From positions 169,092 through 189,091 of the forward strand of contig JABVCE010000041.1 of the NCBI GenBank assembly GCA_014905635.1: a stretch of 20,000 bases of DNA, read 5' to 3'. Source of the DNA: Scenedesmus sp. PABB004. Its lineage: Eukaryota. The notes beneath the pieces are model-generated. The model was not told the DNA's origin. It was given only the letters and a program-made list of their open reading frames with translations, and made no database searches. Of this stretch, positions 2,532 through 19,725 are shown piece by piece (the first letter of the stretch is position 1; each line of letters begins with the position of its first letter). The position numbers were made by a program, and so were the translations under genes.

Positions 2532-4233
2532 TTACGCCTCACGCTCCTTGGAGACCCAGTGGGACACCATGATCGAGTCGAACACGATCTGCCCGAGGTG
2601 CGCCAGCACGCATGGCACGACCGCGGCGCCCACCGCCGCCTCGCCCAGCACTGGCGCGAGCTTGGCGCACACGGTCACCGCGACCGGCAGCGTCTTGACG
2701 GACGCGACCAGCAGCACTGCGCGCCGCACGTCCCGACCCGCGCGCCCCGGGCCGCCCAGCTGCAGCAGCCTGCGGGGGCGGCGGCGGGTGCCACACGCTC
2801 GGCGAGCGCCAGCGTGCGCAGGGCCGCCCGAGCGCGCGCGCCCGTCGCCGGCGCGCCTGGTGGCGGTCAAGTTCAGCGCAAGGAACGTTGCGTGGATTCC
2901 GATGCCGGCAGCAGCTGTGCACAGCAGGGCGGCCGCGTCGAGCGCGACTCGCTGGCTGACGGCCTTGCTGATCTGCATCCACGGCACCAGCGCCAGCAGC
3001 CCCGCGGCAACGTACGAGAGCAGCCGCTTCCGCGCGTCGATCGCCTGCGCAGCGCCTGCCAGAGCAGCGCGCAGCGCGGGGCTCGGCGGTCAAATGCGCA
3101 GGCGACAGGCGTCGGCGCCGCATCGGCGCGGCGCCAGGCGTCGGTGCCGCGCGGCGCGGCGCAGCGCCGCCGCACCTGGCACGAAGCCTCGGATGGAGGC
3201 GCCCAGCAGCGTGGGCAGCAGGATGGTCTGGCACAGCTGCGCGAGGAGCGGCAGCGGCTCGAGCACGAGCCCCGCCGCGCCCGCGGCCTGCGCGGCGGGC
3301 GCCGCCGCGAGGACGTGGGGCAGCAGGAAGGGCATCGTGAAGATGCCGAGAATGTTTGACGCCACCGTCAGCAGCAGCGCGAGCGACACGTTGCCGCCCA
3401 CTTGCTGCGCGCGGGCGGATGCGGGGCGCGGAAGGTGGGCGCGGGCGCCCGCGCGGGGCGGGGCGCGGCGCGCGCCGCCGACGCCCGGCGCCGCGCCTGC
3501 GTGAACGTGACGCCGCTGGAGAGCGCGGTGGGCATGGAGCAGAACACGCCGAGGCCCAGCGCGAGCGTGGACGGCTGCAACGGCAGCCGCACGACCAGCA
3601 GCCCGAGCAGTGGCGTGAGGAGCAGGATTGAGAGCAGGCCGTACGCGATCGCGCCCCGCGCCGACAGCGCGGCCGCCGCCTCCTTGCGCCGCAGCTGCAG
3701 GCCCTGCGCGCGGCGCGGCGCGGCGCAGCGAAGGCCGTGCGCGGCCGCCGCGCGCCGCGGCGCGTGCGCCCGTCTGGCCGCGCCGCACGCGCCCTGTGCC
3801 GCACCTGCACCACGAAGATGCCAAACGTCGTGATCGCTGGGACCTGCAGCCCCGCCGCCGCGACGCCCAGGCCCGGGCAGGCCGCGCCGAGCGCCATCGC
3901 GGTGAGCAGCGCAAGCGGCAGGAAGTGCGCCTGCGCAAAGGCCGCCACCGCGGCCGCCCAGCCAGCGACTGCTGCAGGAGGGCCCCCGGCTGCGCCGCCA
4001 GCCGCCGCAGCCGCGCGCCAGCAGCGCCGGAGCGCCGCAGCAGCGGCGCCCGCCCGCGCCGGCGCGGGCCACGGCGGCGCCGCGCGCGTGCCCGTCCGCG
4101 AGGCCTGCAGGCGCCATGCGCGGCAAAGCGCAGCGCCGGAGGCACGCCGCGGCGCGCACGGCGCCGCTGCTGCCGCCGGGCGCGCCGCCGCCGCTGGGCG
4201 CCCCGCCGACAGGGCGCGTTGCGGGCTCGCCAT
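2532..4233 (-). CDS. BASS4: Plastid sodium/metabolite (bile acid:sodium symporter family, SBF-like) transporter, BASS4-like
   Basis: Exons (-): 4233-3805, 3703-3497, 3404-3176, 3055-2857, 2769-2532 (TAA). Ala/Arg-rich transit-peptide-like N-terminus; motifs HFLPLALL, FGIFVVQGLQLR, FCSMPTALSSGVTFTQQVGGNVSLALLLTVASNILGIFTMPF, LVPWMQISK, ASVKTLPVAVTV, PCVLAHLGQIVFDS match the BASS4/SLC10A7 group. Alternative start ATG at 4242. Confidence 0.85.
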
Positions 4234-4521
4234 GACGCGCATGTGAGTCGTTACGATCTCGGGAGGGCTGTTCTGGTCGGTGCGAAGGGGTCGCTCCACG
4301 CAGCAGCAGCAGCAGCAGCGCTGGCAAGAGCCGGTCAAACGATGGCGTCGCTTGGCTGCTCGAGCGCGGCCAGCTGCGCGCGCGCCGGCCGACTCGTCGG
4401 CCTGCCGACGACGGCGCCGAGCCCTCACGGCCGCCGCCATTGCTGCTCACCGCTGGTGACGCGCCGCTGGGGGTCCAACGTGGCGGTCACAGGCCGCGGT
4501 GAGCGGCGCGCCGCCCGCCGC

Positions 4522-4551: not shown

Positions 4552-4638
<87 letters not shown>

Positions 4639-5307
4639 CTCGCCGCCGCCCTCGCCCTCGCCGCCGCCCTCGCCCTCGCCCTCGCCCTCGCCCTCGCCCT
4701 CGCCCTCGCCCTCGCCCTCGCCCTCGCCCTCGCCCTCGCCCTCGCCCTCGCCCTCGCCCTCGCCCTCGCCCTCGCCCTCGCCCTCGCGCTCGCTCGCCGC
4801 CGCCGCGGCGAGCGCGGCCACGTACGCGTGCTGCAGCCAGAGCAGCAGGGACCAAAACCCCAGCATCAGCGTCCAAAACTCCACCTGCTCGCTCAGCTGC
4901 GCCGCTCCAGTCGCGGCCTGCTCGCTCAGCTGGGCGGCTCGCTGCGCGCGGTTGCGGCGGCGTGTTGCCGCAGCGGCAGCTCCCACGGCCCGCCTCTGCT
5001 CTGCGATCGAACGCGTAACCAGGTGCGCCGGCAGCGGCTCGCCCGGGTGCTGCGGGCGCGCGGCGCGCGGCGCGGCGCGGCAGGGCTCGGCGCCGACCGC
5101 CTGCGGCAGCGGCGTGGCCGCCGCGCGCGCGCGCAGGGCGCAGCTCACGCTGCCGGCGTAGGCGGCGGCCAGCTCGGGCTTGCGGTCGCTGTACCACCGA
5201 TCGGACACAGCGTCCACGGTCCTGTCGCGGCGGCGAGGGTGAGGCGGCAGGGTCGAGGGCAGCGTGTTAACAGCAGCCGCGGGCGCAAGAAGCTGCGGGG
5301 CGCGAGC

Positions 5308-9957: not shown

Positions 9958-12889
9958 ATGGCTCTGGCGCCGCGCCGGGCTCTGGCGCTCCTGGCAGGCG
10001 TTCTGCTGTCGCTGCTCAGCAGCGGCGCGGCGGCACCGCAGGCGCCGTTCGTGGTGGAGTACGAGCCGAGCGCGGCCGCCGCCGTGCGCGGCGCGCTGCA
10101 GGCGCAGGGCTTCCGCGTGCTGCGCGACCACCGCGACTTCAACCGACTCGTCGTCGCGGCCGGCGCGGCAGCGGCCACCGCGTCCACGGCCAGCGGCGCG
10201 GCCGGCGCCGACCTGGAGGGCCAGCTCGCGGGCGTGCCGGGCGTGGCGGGCGTGGCGCGCGCCGGCGTGCGCAGCCTGTTCCCGCAGCCCGTCGTGGCGG
10301 CCAGCCCCGCGCCGGGCAACGCCAGCGAGCAGTGCAGCGCGGACGACGGCAAGCTCGGCCCCGACGCCGACCTCGCGCGCGAGGGCGAGGGCACGCCGTA
10401 CGGCATCAAGCTGGTGCAGGCGGACGACCCGGTCATGGTTGACATCAGCCGGCGCCACGCGGGCAAGGTGCTCTTCTGCGTCATTGACACGTGAGCGTGG
10501 TGGCGGCGGCGGCCACGGCGGCGCGGGAAGGGGCGGTGGGGGCGCGGGGGTGGCGCGCGGGGAGCAAGGGGGCCCGGGGGCTGCCACGGCGTGCACTCGA
10601 CCGCCCCCCCCCCCCCCCTGCTCTGCTCCTGCCCCGGTGCCCCGGCGCGCAGCGGGCTGGACCGCACCAACAAGGACTTCCCCGCGACCGTGTCGGGCTG
10701 CACCCCCGGCTACCCCAACGGCGACGTGACCGCGCCGTTCAACTACTGCTACCCCTGGGCCGAGGACAGCAACCGCCACGGCACCCACACCTCGGGTGGG
10801 CGCCACCGCCGCGCCACAGCAGCCGCGGCCGCGCCGGCCCCTAGGGTGCGCGCCACGGCTGACCGCGCCGCCCGCTGGCCGCGGAGCAGGCACAATCGGC
10901 GCGGTGCGCAACGGCGTGGGCGTGGTGGGCGTGTCTGCCGAGGGTGCAGCGATCTATCACTACAACTTCTTTGGCCCCAACAGTGAGCCCGCGCAGCGCA
11001 GCGCCGCGGCACCCCACCCGCTGCCGCCGCTCAACCCCCGCCACGGCCGCCGCCCGCCGCGCCTCCGTGCCCGCAGTGGACGCCAGCGACGACCTCGAGG
11101 TGGAGGCCTGGCGGCACTGCATCGCAGAGCTCGACGCGTGAGCCGCGCGGGCGGGCCGCACGACGCGCCCGCCCCCACGCGTGCGGACGGCGCCGGCGCC
11201 GGCGGCGGCGGCGGCAGCGCCCGCCCTCGGCGCTCAGACAGCCACGCGGGCCCGCGCTCCACCCCCCGCCCCGCGCGTGCCGCAGGCGCCGCGCGTCGAG
11301 CGGCGTGCCTGACATGAAGCTCGTCATCTCCATGAGCTACGGCAGCGCCGCGGACACCGAGTTCAGCCGCTCCGCGATCAAGGCCCTCGCGGCGGCGCGG
11401 CGCGACGTGCTGTGGGTCGCCGCGGCGGGCAACAGCGGCGACAACTCCACGCACTTCCCCGCGGGCTACGACGAGGTCATCAGCGTCGCCGCGGTCAACT
11501 GGGACGGCGCCGTCGCAGACTTTTCGACCTTCAACGCCGACGTGGAGCTCGCGGGGCCGGGCGTGATGACGCTGAGCACCATCCCCCTCGCCATGAGCAA
11601 CGCGTCCGAGTACCACGCGCGGCCCTACGCCGCCGACGTGCTGTCCGTGTCGCCGCAGCTGCCCGCCGTGGCCAGCGACGGCGGGTTCTTCAACCGCCCC
11701 GCCGTGGCGCGCGTCGAGGGCGCGCCGGCGGGCACGCTCACCGCGGAGCTCGTGGCGTGCGGGCTCGCGCAGGAGCCGTGCGCCGGCGCGGCGGGCAAGG
11801 TCTGCCTCATCCAGCGCGGCAACAACACCTTCTGCGACAAGGCGCGGCCCGCCCCGCGGCGGGCCAGGGCGCGCCGCCGCGCGGGCGTGGGGCCGCCGCG
11901 CCGGACCGAGCCGACCCGCGCCGCGGCCCCGTCCGCCGGCGCCGCGCGCAGGTGGTCAACTGCGCTGCCGGCGGCGGGGTGGGCGCCATCATCTACAACC
12001 GCGACGACGTGCCCGACTGCGAGCGCCTGGCGGGCGTGTCCCTCGGCCTCTGCGACGCCGACGCCCGCCCGCCTGCGGGCTGGCCGCTCGCGGTCACGGT
12101 GACCGCGCGGCAGGGCGCCGCACTGCGGGCCGCCATCGACGCGGGCACGGGGCCGGTCAGCGCCACGCTGCGCGTGACGGACGTGCCGCCGCAGCCGGAG
12201 ATCGGGCTGGACCTGCTCAGCGGCACCAGCATGGTGCGCGCCCGCGCGCGCCCGGCAGCGACCCGCCGCCCAGCCGCCGCGGTCGGCCGGCCCCGCCACC
12301 GCCACCGCCGCCGCGCCGCACTGCCCGCTGGGGCCCGCAGGCCTGCCCCACCGTCGCTGGCGTGGCCGGCCTGGTCTGGAGCGCGCACACCGAGTGCAGC
12401 TCGGCCGAGATCCGGCGCGCGCTGCAGGCCACGGCGTACAAGCCGGCCGGCCCGGCCGCCGGCGCGAGCGGCGCGGGCGAGCGCGACGAGCACTTCGGCT
12501 ACGGCATCGTCCAGGCGCGCGCGGCGCACGAGTGGCTGCTCGCCAACCCCTGCGCCGCCGAGGGCGGCGTGCAGGTCGCGCTGCGCTTCACCACGGTCGG
12601 CGCGCCGGCGACCGGGGACGTGGCCAGCGCAATCGGCGTGCGCGTCGAGGTCACCGATGGCGCGACCGGCTCCCCGGTCGCCGGCCAGCGCGTGGCGCTG
12701 CTGGTCGAGCCCAGCCGCAAGGCCGTCGCGTGCCGGTCCTACGCGCTGACCACCAACACCGCCGGCGTGGCCACCACCAGCTGCACCCTGGCCGAACCGG
12801 CCTCGGCCAAGATTACGGCGCGCGCGGTCGGCGGCATCGCGCGCGGCGCGTCGGCAGTCGGCACCGTGCCCGCGGCGGCTGGGCGGTGA
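9958..12889 (+). CDS. Secreted subtilisin-like serine protease (S8A) with prodomain, PA insert and C-terminal Ig-like domain
   Basis: Exons (+): 9958-10490, 10653-10795, 10890-10982, 11077-11137, 11286-11841, 11952-12233, 12341-12889. Signal peptide; catalytic Asp (FCVIDTG), His (HGTHTSGTI), oxyanion Asn (AAAGNSG), Ser (SGTSMACPTVAG); PA domain CLIQRGNNTFCDKVVNCAAGGGVGAIIYN; RDEHFGYGIVQA. Confidence 0.92.
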
Positions 12890-13259
12890 GAGCGAGCGTG
12901 AGCGCAGCCCTGCATAAGGGCGACGCTGATGGGCTGAATTGGGCGTGAGGGAGTGGGGCGCTGGCCGGTGCTGTGCAAGCACCTGGGCAGTGCGGCGAGT
13001 GCGGCGAGTGCGCACCGCGTCGCACGAGCAGCGGGCGGCCGTCACGACGGGTGACCCACCTCCTCCTCCCGCTGCTCGTCGCCCGACGCGCTTCCCGAGC
13101 TCCGCCGCGATCGACTCCGTGCGCGCCGGCGCAGCCCGACCCCGCTCGGGCGCTGCAGGGAGCGAAACTGCCAGCAACCGCTGCCGCCGTCCTCGCCAGC
13201 TGGCGCGCGGGCGGTGCCAGCGATGCTGGCTCTGGAGCCAGTAGAGTAGCTGAAACGCC

Positions 13260-16200
13260 ATGCTCGTGCAACGGCAGCGCCCGGGGTGGCGCACTGCAGC
13301 GCCGGCGGCTCGGTGCCAGCTTCTGCTGCTCGTTGTGCTGCTGCTGCGCCGCGCCAGTGGCCTTGAGTTCGAGATCCGGGTCCCGCCGGGAGTGCAGACG
13401 AAGGGGGAGGACGCCTACGTCTGCACCACGCTGCAGCTCCCCGACGACCGCCCGCTGAAGCTGGTCGGCGTGGAGCCGCTGGCGCACGCGTCGGTCGTGC
13501 ACCACATCCTGCTCTTCGGTGCGCGCGCCGCCGCCCGCCGCTGCAGCCTGCTGCCGCTGGCCTGCAGTCTGCCGCCGGCAGCCGGCCGGCGGCTGCAGCC
13601 TGCTGCCACCGGCAGCCGGCTGCAGCCCCGCGCGCGCGTGGCTGAGCGCGCGCCGCCCGTGGGCGCAGGCTGCGACGTGCCGTATGTGCAGCCCAAGCCC
13701 GGCGAGCAGGCGGCGTGGGACTGCCGTTCGGCGCCCACGTGCGGCGGCGCGGCCGAGACGGTGCTTTATGGCTGGGGCTCCAACGCGCCGCGCCTGGACC
13801 TGCCCGCGGGCGTGGGCTTCAGCGTCGGCGCGGGCAGCGCCGTGACGTGGGTGGTGGCTCAGTTCCACTACCTCGCCGAGCGCCCGCCCGGCGACGCGTC
13901 CGGCGTGCGCCTCAAGTGAGCGGCCGCCGCGCACGGGCGATCGCCGGCGGCGGGCACCGGCCGCCGCAGCGCCGACGCCCCGCCCTCCGCCGCGCGCGCG
14001 CAGCCTGCAGGACGCACCGCTGCCGTTCAGCGGTGGGCTGCTGTCCTTTGCGAGCCGCTTCACCATCCCGCCGCGCAAGGCGCACCACGTGGTGTCCATT
14101 GACTGCTGCTACCGGGGCTTCCAGCCCCTCACCAGCTTTGCCGTGCGCGTGCACACGCACACGCTGGGCCGTGCCGTGTTCATGACCAAGGCTCACGCCG
14201 CGCCGGGAGGTGCGCGCATGCGGGCGACGCGGGGCTCGGGGCTGCCCGCGCGGCGGGCCAACCCCACCCTCCCTGCCGCCCGCCCGGCAGGCCACGGGCA
14301 CGTCGTCGCCGCGGCGGACCCCCAGCAGCCCCAGGGCTTCCACCCTGTCGCGTCGGCCGTGCTCTGGCCGGGCGAAAGGCTGACCGTGGCTTGCGACTTT
14401 GACTCCAGCGACATGGCGGCCCCCGTGTCGGCAGGGCCGACCCACGCACACGAGATGTGCAACATGTGAGGCTGGGGAGGGGGGGGGGGGGGCTCAGCCC
14501 CAGCTTCGCGCGAGCCCTAGCCTACCGACCCGCCGCACACCGCCGCACACCGCTGCACACCGACGCGCCACGCGCCGCCGCCCCCCCCCCCCAGGTACCT
14601 CATGGTCTACGGCGCGCTGCCGCACAGCGAGATGTGCGACGACGGCGCGTCGCTCGCGGACGAGGCGGCGCCGGGCAACATGCGCCGCGCGTCGGTGCTG
14701 CTGCCAGACCCCTTTGTGCTCTGGGCGCCGCCCGCGCCCAGCACGCTCCTCAACCAGGTGCGCCGCGGCGGCCGCCGCCGCGCCTGCGCCGCGGCGCTGC
14801 GCGCCCCTGCCACGGCGCGGCCCCCGCTCGGTCAGGCTCAGGCCCGACCCGGCGCCGCTCGTGCCCCCGCCGCCGCCGCCGTCGTGCAGAGCGCGGTGGG
14901 CAGCGCAGCGTCCGTGGCGGTCGGCCCGGACGGCACGCTGTGGGCGCTGTTCCGCGGCGACCGCGTGTGGGCGGGTCACACGTTTGACGCGGACGACCGC
15001 GTGCTCTACAAGGACGCGCTGCGCGGCGACGTGGTGGTGCAGATGCACGCAGACACGGGTGCGCGGCTGCGGGGGCGCGGCCGGCGGCAGGGCGCCGCGG
15101 CCGCCCAGCGGCGGCCGGCTGACGCGGCGTGCTGCCGCTGCACCTGCAGGCAAGGTGCTGCGCCACTGGGGCGGCGGCGTGTTTGTGCTGCCCCACGCGC
15201 TGGCGGTGGACCGCAACAACAGCGTGTGGGTCGTCGACGCGGGGCGGCACCAGGTGCTCAAGTTCTCCGCCAGCGGGCAGCTCGAGCTGGCGGTCGGCAA
15301 GGCCTTCAACCCTAGCAATGCGCGCTCCCTCTGCAAGCCCCGCGACGTGCGTTGCGCAAAGCCGCGGCGGCGGGGCCGGCGGCGGTGTGCGCTTTGGGGG
15401 GCAACCCCAGGCGCTCAGCCCGGCCATCGCTCAGCCCAGCCGCTGCCGCCACGCCGCAGGTGGCGGTGCTGAACGACGGCGGCTTTCTGGTCAGCGACGG
15501 CTGCAGCCCGCGCGTGGTGCGCTTCAACGCGGACGGCTCGCAGCACAGCGAGCTTGCGGTGCCCGCGGGGCGCGGCGCCGCGCCCGTGCTGCACAGCCTG
15601 GTCTTGGACGAGTGCGACGGCCTGGTCGAGGTGGCGGACAGCGCCAACGCGCGCGTTCATCGCCTGCACCTGCCGACCGGCCGCCTCAAGAGTGAGTTGG
15701 CTGCCCCACGCCGACCGGACCTCAGGGGGTGCGCCCCGGGCTTGTGCGCTGACGGGCCCACGCCGCACTGCGCGCGCCGCGCAGGCACGGTCCAGCTGCA
15801 GGAGCACGGCAGCGTGCGCGCGCTCGCCAAGGGCCCGTACGGGCGCACGATCGCGCTCGTGACGGTGCGCGAGGGCGAGGACGCGGCGCTCGTGGACGTG
15901 GGCGCCCCGGACATCAGCTGGCGGCTGCCAAACAGCAGCGCCCTGGCGCCGCACGACCTCGCGCTCGGCGCGGCGGCGCTGCCGCTCACGGGCGCGGGCG
16001 ACCGGCTGCTCGCGGTCACGCTCGCGGCGCTGTGCCCTGGCTGCGGCCCGCTCGCCAAGTACGTGCTGGTGCCCAGCAGCTTTGAGCCCGAGGCTGCCAA
16101 CGCCGCGTTGGCACCGCCTGCAGCTGCCGGCGCCGCGCGGCCCGCGCTCGCGCACCGGCATGCCGACGGCGCCGACGCGGGCGCCGGCGGCGTGCATGCG

Positions 16201-16629
16201 GGGGCGGCGGACGACGCGGCCGACGACGCGTCGGTGGAGGCGCGGGAGGCGGCCGCCGACGCGGAGGAGGCCGCGGCAATGGCCGACCCGGAGCTCGCGG
16301 CGCGACTGCGCGAACGGCTGGCGCACGTGCGAGCAGAGCTGGCCGCCGCGCGCGCGGGCGACGGCGCAGAGGCGGAAGCGTTCCGCACCCTGCGCCCGGG
16401 GCCGCGCCAGGCACGCAGCGCCGGCGGCGCTTTGGCCGCACTCGTGGCGGTGAGCGTCGCGCTCGGGCTGGCTGCAGGCGCGCTGGCCATGAGCGCCCTG
16501 CAGCGGCACGCGCTGGCACCGGGGGGCGCGACTGGACAGGAACGGGAACCGCCGTTGTCTGTTGGCGGCGGCGACGCTGCGGCGCGCGCGGACGAGGGCG
16601 TGCGCCTGCTTGACGGCGGCCGGGTATGA
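13260..16629 (+). CDS. PAM: Bifunctional peptidylglycine alpha-amidating monooxygenase (PHM + PAL-like domains, TM anchor, cytosolic tail)
   Basis: Exons (+): 13260-13518, 13669-13915, 14004-14209, 14291-14465, 14595-14757, 14890-15058, 15150-15346, 15460-15691, 15785-16629. PHM Cu ligands VVHHILLF, AQFHY, RVHTHTLG, HEMCNMY, plus DAYVC and PQQPQGFHP. PAL beta-propeller motifs FRGDRVW, LPHALAVD, CKPRDVAV, LHSLVL, APHDL. TM ALAALVAVSVALGLAAGALAM. Confidence 0.93.
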
Positions 16630-17774: not shown

Positions 17775-18397
17775 ATGGCCTCTCGCTCCGCAATCCGCGC
17801 CCTCGTGGCGCTGCTGGCGCTGGCGGGGGCCCACGGCGCCGCCGCGGGCGCCGCGCGCTTTGGCGCTGCCGGCGAGGCGCCGGTGCCCCGCCGGCTGCTC
17901 GGCGGGCTCTGGGAGTGAGCGGGGCATGGGGAGGGCTCACACCAGCGCCGGCGCGCCCGCCGAGGGCCCGCAGCGGCGGCGGCGGCGCATTGCAGCGCAG
18001 CGACGGCGCCGACCGAGAGCGTTCGCCCGCCGCTCGCAGGAAGTTCCACGCGCCCGCGCCCGCGCCGGCACCCGCGCCGGCGCCGATCATCATCATCACG
18101 CCCCCCGCGCAGCAGCAGGTCGTGGCGGCCCAGCCGGTCGTGGCCGCGCAGCCGGTCGTCGCCGCGCAGCCGGTCGTGGCCGCGCAGCCGGTCGTGGCGG
18201 CCCAGCCGGTCGTGGCCGCGCAGCCGGTCGTCGCCGCGCAGCCGGTCGTGGCCGCGCAGCCCGTCGTGGCCGCGCAGCCCGTCGTGGCCGCGCAGCCCGT
18301 CGTGGCGGCCCAGCCGGTGACGGTCAACACGCAGGTGAAGCAGACCAACATCCAGCTCGGCGGCGGTGGCGGCCAGGCGCACCCGTTCTTTGGCTGA
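17775..18397 (+). CDS. Small secreted repeat protein / putative amidated-peptide precursor (165 aa)
   Basis: Exons 17775-17914 and 18040-18397 (GA|GTGAGC...CGCAG|G, phase consistent). MASRSAIRALVALLALAGAHG signal, RRLL, (AP)6, QQVVAA+(QPVVAA)10, ending GGGGGQAHPFFG-stop. Confidence 0.8.
18113..18310 (+). repeat. Coding 18-bp tandem repeat x11 encoding (Q[Q/P]VVAA)
   Basis: Unit CAGCCGGTCGTGGCCGCG; the ten QPVVAA copies differ only at synonymous positions. Confidence 0.95.
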
Positions 18398-18581: not shown

Positions 18582-19725
18582 TCAGAAGCCGTCCGTTGCG
18601 AGCAGGGCGTGCAAGGCCTCGACCACGCGCTGCCCCGCGAGGTCGAGGCTGGGGTCGGCGACCTTGGCCGCCAGCAGCGAGGCGACCGCGGCGCGCAGGT
18701 GCTTGATGAGCACGCCGACGCGCGCGGGCGCCTTGAACTTGGCCCACCCGTCCAGCAGCAGCAGGCCCTGGTCGTGCAGCACCTCCAGCTCCCCGCCAAA
18801 CGCGAGCAGCGACCACACCGGGACCATGCTCACCTCGCGCGCAAACGCGCGGCTCGTCTCCACGAGCTGCGAGTACACCAGCCAGCTTGCGCGCCGCGGG
18901 GTCAAGGGGGGATGGGTCGGAGGCGGCCTCGCCGGCGCGAACAGCGCCGCGCACGGCGCCGCGCACGGCGCCTGCGCGCCGCGCACCCGAGCTGTAGCTG
19001 CCCGCGGTGAAGCACACGCTCGCGGGGTGCACCCACACGCGGCCGAGGGCGCGCTCAAAGAGCTTGATCGACCCCGGGTCCGCCTCCACGCGCGCCGCGC
19101 CGCCCGCGACCTGCGTGTACTTGACCGGCGCCTCGACGCGCAGCACGCGCGGGTAGAAGCCTGGGGGGGGGGGGGGGGTGAGCAGGCGGCAAGCAGCGCG
19201 TGCGGCGACGCCAGCGCGTGCGGCGATACCAAGCGCGTGCCGCGACGCCAGCGCGGCGGCTGCCCCGCTCCCTCCGATTGACCCGGCGCACCCGCGGCGA
19301 GGGCGGCCTTGACGATGCGCGCGTTGTGGCTGAACTCGTCCGGCGCGCCCCGCGCCACCGCGGCGCGGCCGTACGACGCCGCGCCCGGCGGCGCGCCCGC
19401 GGCGGCGTCGTCGCGCGACGGGCCGCCCTGCTGGCGCGCGCGCAGGTGGTCGACGTACCAGTCGGGCAGGAAGCCGCGCCCCGCCAGCGTGGCGGCGTAG
19501 TCCAGGCGGCCCTTGGCGATGGCCTCCAGCACCTGCCGAGGGGGCAGGGAGGGTGTGTGTGTGTGGGGGGGGGGGGGGTCGAGGTGAGCGCGCGGTGGCG
19601 GTAGCGAGGCGGCCCACAGGGTGTGGGCCCCGCCCGCCCGCCCGCCCGCTCGCCCGCCCGCCCGCCCCGCGCGCCGCTGGCCCACCTGCTCCGACACAAA
19701 GTTGGCCTGCGCAAACTCCCGCCCC
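18582..19725 (-). pseudogene. 3' fragment of a DExH/DEAH-box RNA helicase (DHX57/DHX36-like; HA2 end + OB-fold), 5'-truncated by the telomere
   Basis: Exons (-): 19725-19686, 19532-19292, 19160-18987, 18886-18582. REFAQANFVSEQVLEAIAKGR, IVKAALAAGFYPRV, RVWVHPASVCF, WLVYSQLVETSRAFAREVSMVPVWSLLAFGG, LDGWAKF are typical DHX C-terminal motifs. No RecA core or start codon before the telomere repeats. Confidence 0.8.

Follow-up and report, generated by a model that had tools for sequence, protein, structure and literature searches.

Can a peptide-amidating enzyme keep its hydroxylase in working order while the lyase fused to it in the same polypeptide loses the residues that carry out catalysis? 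The question is raised by a PAM gene (13260-16629, + strand) in a 20,000-nucleotide stretch of Scenedesmus sp. PABB004 DNA (contig JABVCE010000041.1, positions 169,092 to 189,091 of the forward strand), which we refer to as a whole as the window. A sequence-only reading of this stretch had proposed that the gene encodes an active hydroxylase (PHM) attached to a pseudo-lyase (PAL). Our analysis, which is also of sequence only, supports that proposal in three respects: the functional sites of PHM are intact, the loss of the catalytic pair in PAL is unique among 69 homologues, and the erosion of conserved positions is specific to PAL. We put at roughly 0.6 the probability that this membrane PAM, of the bifunctional type and from a green alga very rich in GC (base composition is ~77% G+C across the whole window), has a working PHM and a PAL that is inactive or severely impaired, kept as a folded, metal-binding, six-bladed NHL propeller.

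The two losses are both found in exon 8 (15460-15691, + strand, the first and last positions being the acceptor and donor ends of the exon), which encodes PAL blades 3-4 and translates (15460-15693) as VAVLNDGGFLVSDGCSPRVV...LHSL...EVADSANARV. At the position of Tyr654 in rat, the codons agc gac ggc tgc at 15493-15504 encode SDG followed directly by Cys, with the Tyr codon absent between 15501 and 15502, and at the position of Arg706 there is a Ser codon, agc, at 15640-15642. These codons had been read in the same way before, and translation confirmed both. Rat numbering was derived from an alignment of the 976-residue chain 5wm0_A to the Tetradesmus PAM P0004 (E 1.5e-78), and positions were counted along it (Y654 in sdgYcnsr, H690 in vpHsl, and R706 in adRengr); the window was aligned with P0004 and 16 other PAMs, 17 other sequences altogether. 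Against P0004 the window has a one-residue gap at Y654 and a Ser at R706, so the equivalents of both catalytic residues are gone, as had been claimed, and an alignment with rat PAM, which had been suggested as a check, upholds both losses when rat is mapped through P0004.

To place these losses among other PAMs, we used a pool of 166 database proteins, 70 of which have the D/N-G-x-C context around the missing Tyr, and 69 of these also have the His at H690, which makes them the PAL-type set. In this set, Tyr654 is Y in 67 sequences and H in two, and there is no gap, while Arg706 is R in 65, K in three, and Q in one, and never Ser. Because 0/69 PAL-type homologues show a gap at Tyr654 or a Ser at 706, the state of the dyad in the window is unique in the sampled set. 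The only one of the 70 with a gap is P0095, which lacks the zinc His; it is a multi-NHL protein and not a PAL. Exon 8 itself found no relative in protein collections searched at near lengths. Intron 8 (15692-15784, + strand, 93 nt, GTGAGT...AG) is in frame and stop-free, so that 15460-16080 can be read as one stretch of 207 amino acids for searches; at near lengths this read-through gave 15 matches, all to the exon 9 part alone and with at most 69% identity. A longer-length protein search gave five matches, including the three closest PAMs, and HMMER against 1.84 billion representatives gave 204 matches, none above ~64% identity. Two JGI metagenome contig loci from the scan with exon 8 (L001 and L002) were rejected as short and spurious. 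In a full-text literature search, which had most subscription-journal papers outside its scope, we found no description of a PAM whose PAL is without the dyad.

One study (PMC10303134) terms the Tyr and Arg the catalytic dyad of PAL and reports that R706A reduces activity by 97% and that human R703Q keeps ~1% of activity. Since the general-base Tyr is deleted in the window and the carboxylate-binding Arg is now Ser, peptidyl-alpha-hydroxyglycine lyase activity has likely been lost or severely impaired, and because the PAL domain lacks two defining catalytic features, we do not class it as a lyase (EC 4.3.2.5). The altered loops have come to look like those of ordinary propellers. With Tyr654 deleted, VSDGCSPRVV has regained the D-x4-R spacing that is typical of NHL repeats; exon 8 can be aligned to TRIM71 repeats without a gap, and VADSANAR(V/I) is shared with an unrelated multi-NHL protein (P0077). 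Both former catalytic loops follow the consensus V-[AS]-D-x-x-x-x-R-[IV] of generic NHL propellers such as TRIM71, Thin, and the designed Pizza proteins. Unlike those propellers, the window keeps the PAL-specific P-H zinc motifs, the cysteines, the GPYG motif, and the fusion to PHM.

What is left of PAL is considerable. The domain is encoded in four exons, with introns 6 and 7 out of frame. Pfam NHL matches exons 7 and 8, and the domain has 59-64% identity with PAL domains of algae whose own match to rat PAL is at E 4e-42, which identifies it as an NHL propeller homologous to PALcc. All three zinc-ligand His motifs had been reported as kept, and we agree, by a different route for each of them. 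Exon 7 (15150-15346, + strand; blades 2-3) directly matches rat PAL 572-638 (E 1.3e-10), and the His of its PHAL motif (cac, 15194-15196) is H585. The His of LHSL in exon 8 (cac, 15592-15594) falls in the H690 column via P0004. The PHD motif of the last blade is invariant in 17/17 other PAMs and is kept in the window as PHDL, with its His at 15952-15954 in exon 9 (15785-16629, + strand), which encodes blades 5-6. For blades 5-6 HMMER gives no alignment between the algal and the rat PAL, so we infer, from the motif, that this His is equivalent to rat H786 and the following Asp to D787. A 15-sequence profile aligned to rat only as far as residue 738, and direct phmmer searches with exon 8, exon 9, and the read-through gave PDB matches from which rat PAL was absent.

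The equivalent of Arg533 (cgc, 14953-14955, in FRGDRVW) is in exon 6 (14890-15058, + strand; blade 1), placed by a weak direct match to rat 515-546, and it is conserved along with the Asp787 of PHD. Asp787 is a structural-calcium ligand in PAL. The conserved cysteines are the Cys634/Cys655 pair, the Cys of an EC motif, and a CxxC pair in exon 9, with Cys634 encoded in exon 7 and GPYG also kept. The position of Met784 is Ala.

The hydroxylase half, by homology a peptidylglycine alpha-hydroxylating monooxygenase (EC 1.14.17.3), is a different case. It had been stated that all of the PHM copper ligands are kept, and direct alignment to rat PHM bears this out for each of them. The CuH ligands were found by a phmmer search of 13260-13913 against rat PHM (vvHHillfg, aqfHy): His107 and His108 (cac cac, 13500-13505) are encoded in exon 1 (13260-13518, + strand), which also has the start codon, a signal peptide (13260-13361) recognized by hydropathy, and the start of PHM, and His172 (13866-13868) is encoded in exon 2 (13669-13915, + strand) in the PHM N-domain. 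The CuM ligands were found by aligning 14005-14463 (rvHtHtlg, heMcn): His242 and His244 (14152-14154 and 14158-14160) are in exon 3 (14004-14209, + strand) and Met314 (atg, 14455-14457, in HEMCN) is in exon 4 (14291-14465, + strand), both in the PHM C-domain. The same direct alignment shows that Arg240 (avRvhth, the first residue of R-V-H-T-H in exon 3) and Asn316 (emcN) are conserved. Tyr318 is also conserved, the Y of EMCNMY that spans the exon 4/5 junction and matches rat emcnlY via P0004, and these three residues are the ones that bind peptidylglycine. Exon 5 (14595-14757, + strand), found by tblastn with P0004 and P0002, encodes the end of PHM and the linker between PHM and PAL. Pfam Cu2_monooxygen and Cu2_monoox_C matched exon by exon with E-values of 1e-6 to 3e-4; single exons, being fragments, have Pfam scores that lie close to the whole-protein cut-off or under it, and matches to PHM in the PDB reach E 1e-14.

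The gene model was built from stop-to-stop open reading frames and homology and has nine exons and eight introns, all GT...AG and with consistent phases. It is collinear with the Scenedesmus and Tetradesmus PAMs, including P0003 and P0004, and its product of 830 amino acids (2490 coding bases) has no frameshift or stop and every splice site intact. In order, the protein has a signal peptide, PHM, the PAL propeller, an acidic linker, a transmembrane helix (~16423-16503, a Kyte-Doolittle peak of 2.34 at residues 765-784), and a short cytosolic tail that ends at the stop codon at 16627-16629. A signal peptide, PHM, PAL, a single transmembrane helix, and a tail in one polypeptide are the features of a bifunctional integral-membrane PAM, and rat and human PAM (PAM-1; PDB 5WM0; PHMcc 1PHM/1OPM; PALcc 3FVZ/3FW0) have the same order. 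In common with those enzymes the window has all PHM copper ligands, R240 and N316, H585, H690, R533, and C634/C655 of PAL, and the NHL propeller; it differs from them in the deletion of Tyr654, in Ser for Arg706, in Arg for Thr637, and in Ala at the Met784 position, and its blades 5-6 have diverged beyond what HMMER can align. By homology and architecture, then, the protein is assigned to the bifunctional membrane PAMs, and its PHM passes every feature checked.

Both losses could in principle be mistakes of sequencing or assembly in a gene that really carries the Tyr and Arg codons. DNA with 77% G+C is hard to sequence, and we found no independent reads over the site. Yet 3 nt would have to have been lost exactly in frame, at a place with neither a repeat nor a homopolymer; an independent substitution 140 nt from there would have to be wrong as well, and so would five other conserved positions of PAL, all without a frameshift in the whole coding sequence, and we believe that such a combination is very improbable. 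We also considered whether an alternative exon or alternative splicing might restore the Tyr, and ruled this out, because the motif lies in the middle of the exon, introns 7 and 8 on either side of it (113 and 93 nt) are too short for a hidden exon, and a tblastn search of the window gave no second match.

The closest relatives of the protein are PAMs of Scenedesmaceae, namely 'pam-b' of Scenedesmus sp. PABB004 (P0002) and the PAMs of Scenedesmus sp. NREL 46B-D3 (P0003) and Tetradesmus obliquus (P0004). The architecture is alike in all of them, including the acidic linker and the transmembrane helix, and the window is 70-73% identical to them in PHM and 59-64% in PAL. In FastTree trees of each of the two domains, the window protein nests inside the Scenedesmaceae clade. 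All three relatives retain SDGYCNSR and ADRE. In P0002 (1498 amino acids) we observed that an M3-peptidase domain (PF01432) of ~640 residues precedes the PAM part; this is probably the result of two neighbouring genes being merged by annotation, and otherwise it would be a genuine fusion.

The loss of conserved residues can be compared between the two halves by counting near-invariant columns, defined as those where, the window protein aside, no more than one sequence departs from the rest. In the window protein, 7/45 of these columns are broken in PAL versus 1/67 in PHM (Fisher p=0.0068). Each of the three sisters breaks zero or one of the PAL columns, jointly 1/127, which also differs from the 7/45 of the window (p=0.0004). 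The seven breaks in PAL are Met to Ala at the residue after H585, a Gly to Asn change that is common to P0002, Gly627 to Ser, Thr637 to Arg, the deletion of Tyr654, Arg706 to Ser, and a Trp to Val change in blade 5. As read from these alignments, erosion at conserved sites together with retention of the structural residues is the pattern expected when catalysis, and not the fold, escapes selection.

Selection can also be examined over a shorter time scale through metagenome data. We found just two DNA runs, both of one freshwater-metagenome study, that contain 12% of the sampled words, with no RNA runs listed; short contigs from these runs, belonging to a relative that is ~96-97% identical, cover 13200-13476, 13982-14285, and 15117-15466. 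Between 13982 and 14285 there are four differences in PHM exon 3 (three synonymous and one Lys to Arg) and five in 76 nt of intron 3, and between 15117 and 15466 the single difference within PAL exon 7 (Asn to Ser) compares with seven in intron 7. These differences between exons and introns support the exon model and what appears to be purifying selection on both halves of the protein.

Several observations weigh against the conclusion that the lyase has been disabled. The role of Tyr654 as the essential base is one that we take for granted here. Natural variants of the dyad exist, with His for Tyr654 and Lys for Arg706 in P0034, His and Gln in P0067, and Lys in P0039 and P0046 (Logan/JGI fragments), so the PAL dyad is not strictly invariant among microbial eukaryote-like PALs. 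Loss of the Arg may be tolerated in part, since R706Q is only ~4-fold lower in activity and retains about a quarter of it (PMC10303134). The PAL domain as a whole does not appear to be decaying faster than expected, because the gap between PHM and PAL identity to P0002 (73% and 64%) matches that between the canonical sisters P0002 and P0004 (85% and 73%), and a PAL so well kept, zinc ligands included, could still be catalytic. The terminal branch of the window protein is long in both domains (0.41 in PHM and 0.57 in PAL, versus 0.03-0.16 for its sisters). None of the metagenome contigs lies over 15467-15890; they end at 15466 and therefore say nothing about the Tyr654 and Arg706 codons. In the protein collections that we searched, there is no relative closer than the Scenedesmaceae PAMs. 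Finally, the hydroxylase activity, the loss of lyase activity, and the binding of metal are predictions from sequence.

Some of these points would be explained if the lyase were rewired and still active, with zinc-bound water or hydroxide, or another residue, replacing Tyr654 as the base, and a new Arg replacing Arg706 in holding the carboxylate of the substrate. A candidate for such an Arg exists, as the Thr637 position, which is Thr in 27/29 homologues, is Arg in the window (cgc, 15341-15343, in exon 7), and this residue could compensate for the lost Arg706. Because Thr637 follows a Pro in blade 3, as the zinc His residues do in blades 2, 4, and 6, the pseudo-symmetry of the propeller implies that residue 637 should face the central cavity. 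The conservation of the three zinc His, Arg533, Asp787, and the disulfide cysteines, the normal conservation of PAL relative to PHM, and the natural His, Lys, and Gln variants would all fit an active enzyme. On the other hand, the Tyr is deleted and not substituted, in a loop shortened to generic NHL length, seven near-invariant PAL positions are altered together, and the nearness of residue 637 to the zinc site is deduced from repeat symmetry. We therefore regard a rewired lyase as distinctly unlikely, and prefer a lyase that is inactive or severely impaired.

The position of the gene suggests another possibility. The telomere repeat of plant type, TTTAGGG, is present as GGGTTTA in ~39 copies from 19726 to 20000, with degenerate variants proximally, and continues to the end of the window. 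Because this array reaches the last position, the end of the window is also that of a chromosome, and the PAM gene, which stops ~3.1 kb before the array, is subtelomeric. All that lies between the PAM gene and the telomere is what remains of a gene for a DEAH-type RNA helicase, its C-terminal, OB-fold part (~18585-19600, minus strand; Pfam OB_NTP_bind, E 3e-5, with helicase-tail-like exons upstream); the helicase core would need to lie beyond the telomere repeats, so this gene seems to have been cut short where the chromosome ends. Gene fragments and duplicates are frequent at chromosome ends like this one. The PAM gene could then be a diverging or degenerating copy, sub-functionalized to a hydroxylase only or becoming a pseudogene, with a canonical PAM or a stand-alone PAL elsewhere and amidation that is quite ordinary, and its long terminal branch in the Scenedesmaceae clade would fit with this.

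Several features of the gene do not look like those of a decaying copy. The reading frame and splice sites are intact over 830 codons, which is weak evidence at 77% GC; the functional sites of PHM are fully conserved, and the divergence of exons relative to introns indicates that PHM exon 3 and PAL exon 7 are constrained. A second PAM or PAL was not found by tblastn inside the 20-kb window. We consider such a degenerating copy unlikely, if somewhat easier to entertain than a rewired lyase, and return to a working hydroxylase joined to a disabled lyase.

In an enzyme of that kind, PHM would hydroxylate glycine-extended peptides and the propeller would no longer cleave the product at a useful rate. 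The hydroxyglycine intermediate would presumably be dealkylated spontaneously in neutral or alkaline conditions after leaving acidic compartments, or else by another enzyme, and the propeller may have been retained for a non-catalytic role, such as the folding or positioning of PHM, or binding. A more specific and more tentative version, which we think is possible and would not put at even odds, is that this is a selectively maintained pseudo-lyase PAM, intermediate between a bifunctional PAM and a PHM-only state, in which the propeller holds or escorts alpha-hydroxyglycine peptides or aids the folding or trafficking of PHM, and the amide is completed spontaneously outside the acidic secretory pathway.

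The PHM-only state itself is known in green algae. As described in PMC6529398, the PHM-only genes of the non-ciliated algae Coccomyxa and Chlorella variabilis likewise provide a hydroxylase without a working lyase, and these algae show that the absence of PAL from amidation chemistry is tolerated. Going by that description (PMC6529398), the window differs from those genes in that it retains a spliced-in and conserved propeller, with only the catalytic residues gone.

Elsewhere in the window, a subtilase gene lies at ~10987-12886 on the plus strand, the same as that of PAM, and stops ~370 bp before the PAM start codon; two of its exon pieces match Pfam Peptidase_S8, and its C-terminal part weakly resembles Big_1. 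This secreted protease and the neighbouring amidating enzyme might be a pair of peptide-processing genes. On the minus strand at ~3100-4480 there are exon pieces of a gene for an SBF-like transporter (DUF4137, bile-acid/sodium symporter-like; Pfam PF13593, E ~1e-7). An 18-nt tandem repeat at 18112-18318 has 11.5 copies with a 91% match and reads as (QPVVAA)n-like in one + strand frame, and there are further GC-rich tandem arrays in the window, for example at 4552-4793.

In the acidic secretory pathway PAL is regarded as obligatory, and ciliogenesis and trafficking are further processes in which PAM has a role. PAM is described (PMC4482046 and PMC6529398) as the sole known enzyme that produces C-terminal peptide amides. 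If our reading of this gene is true, it is a natural experiment on whether some algae can do without the lyase step. It would also separate the catalytic from the non-catalytic roles of PAL in nature, and would bear on what the propeller does apart from catalysis, as well as on how a bifunctional PAM decays to the PHM-only state of Coccomyxa and Chlorella. For enzymologists, the domain offers a ready-made scaffold in which to ask which residues suffice to restore PAL activity.

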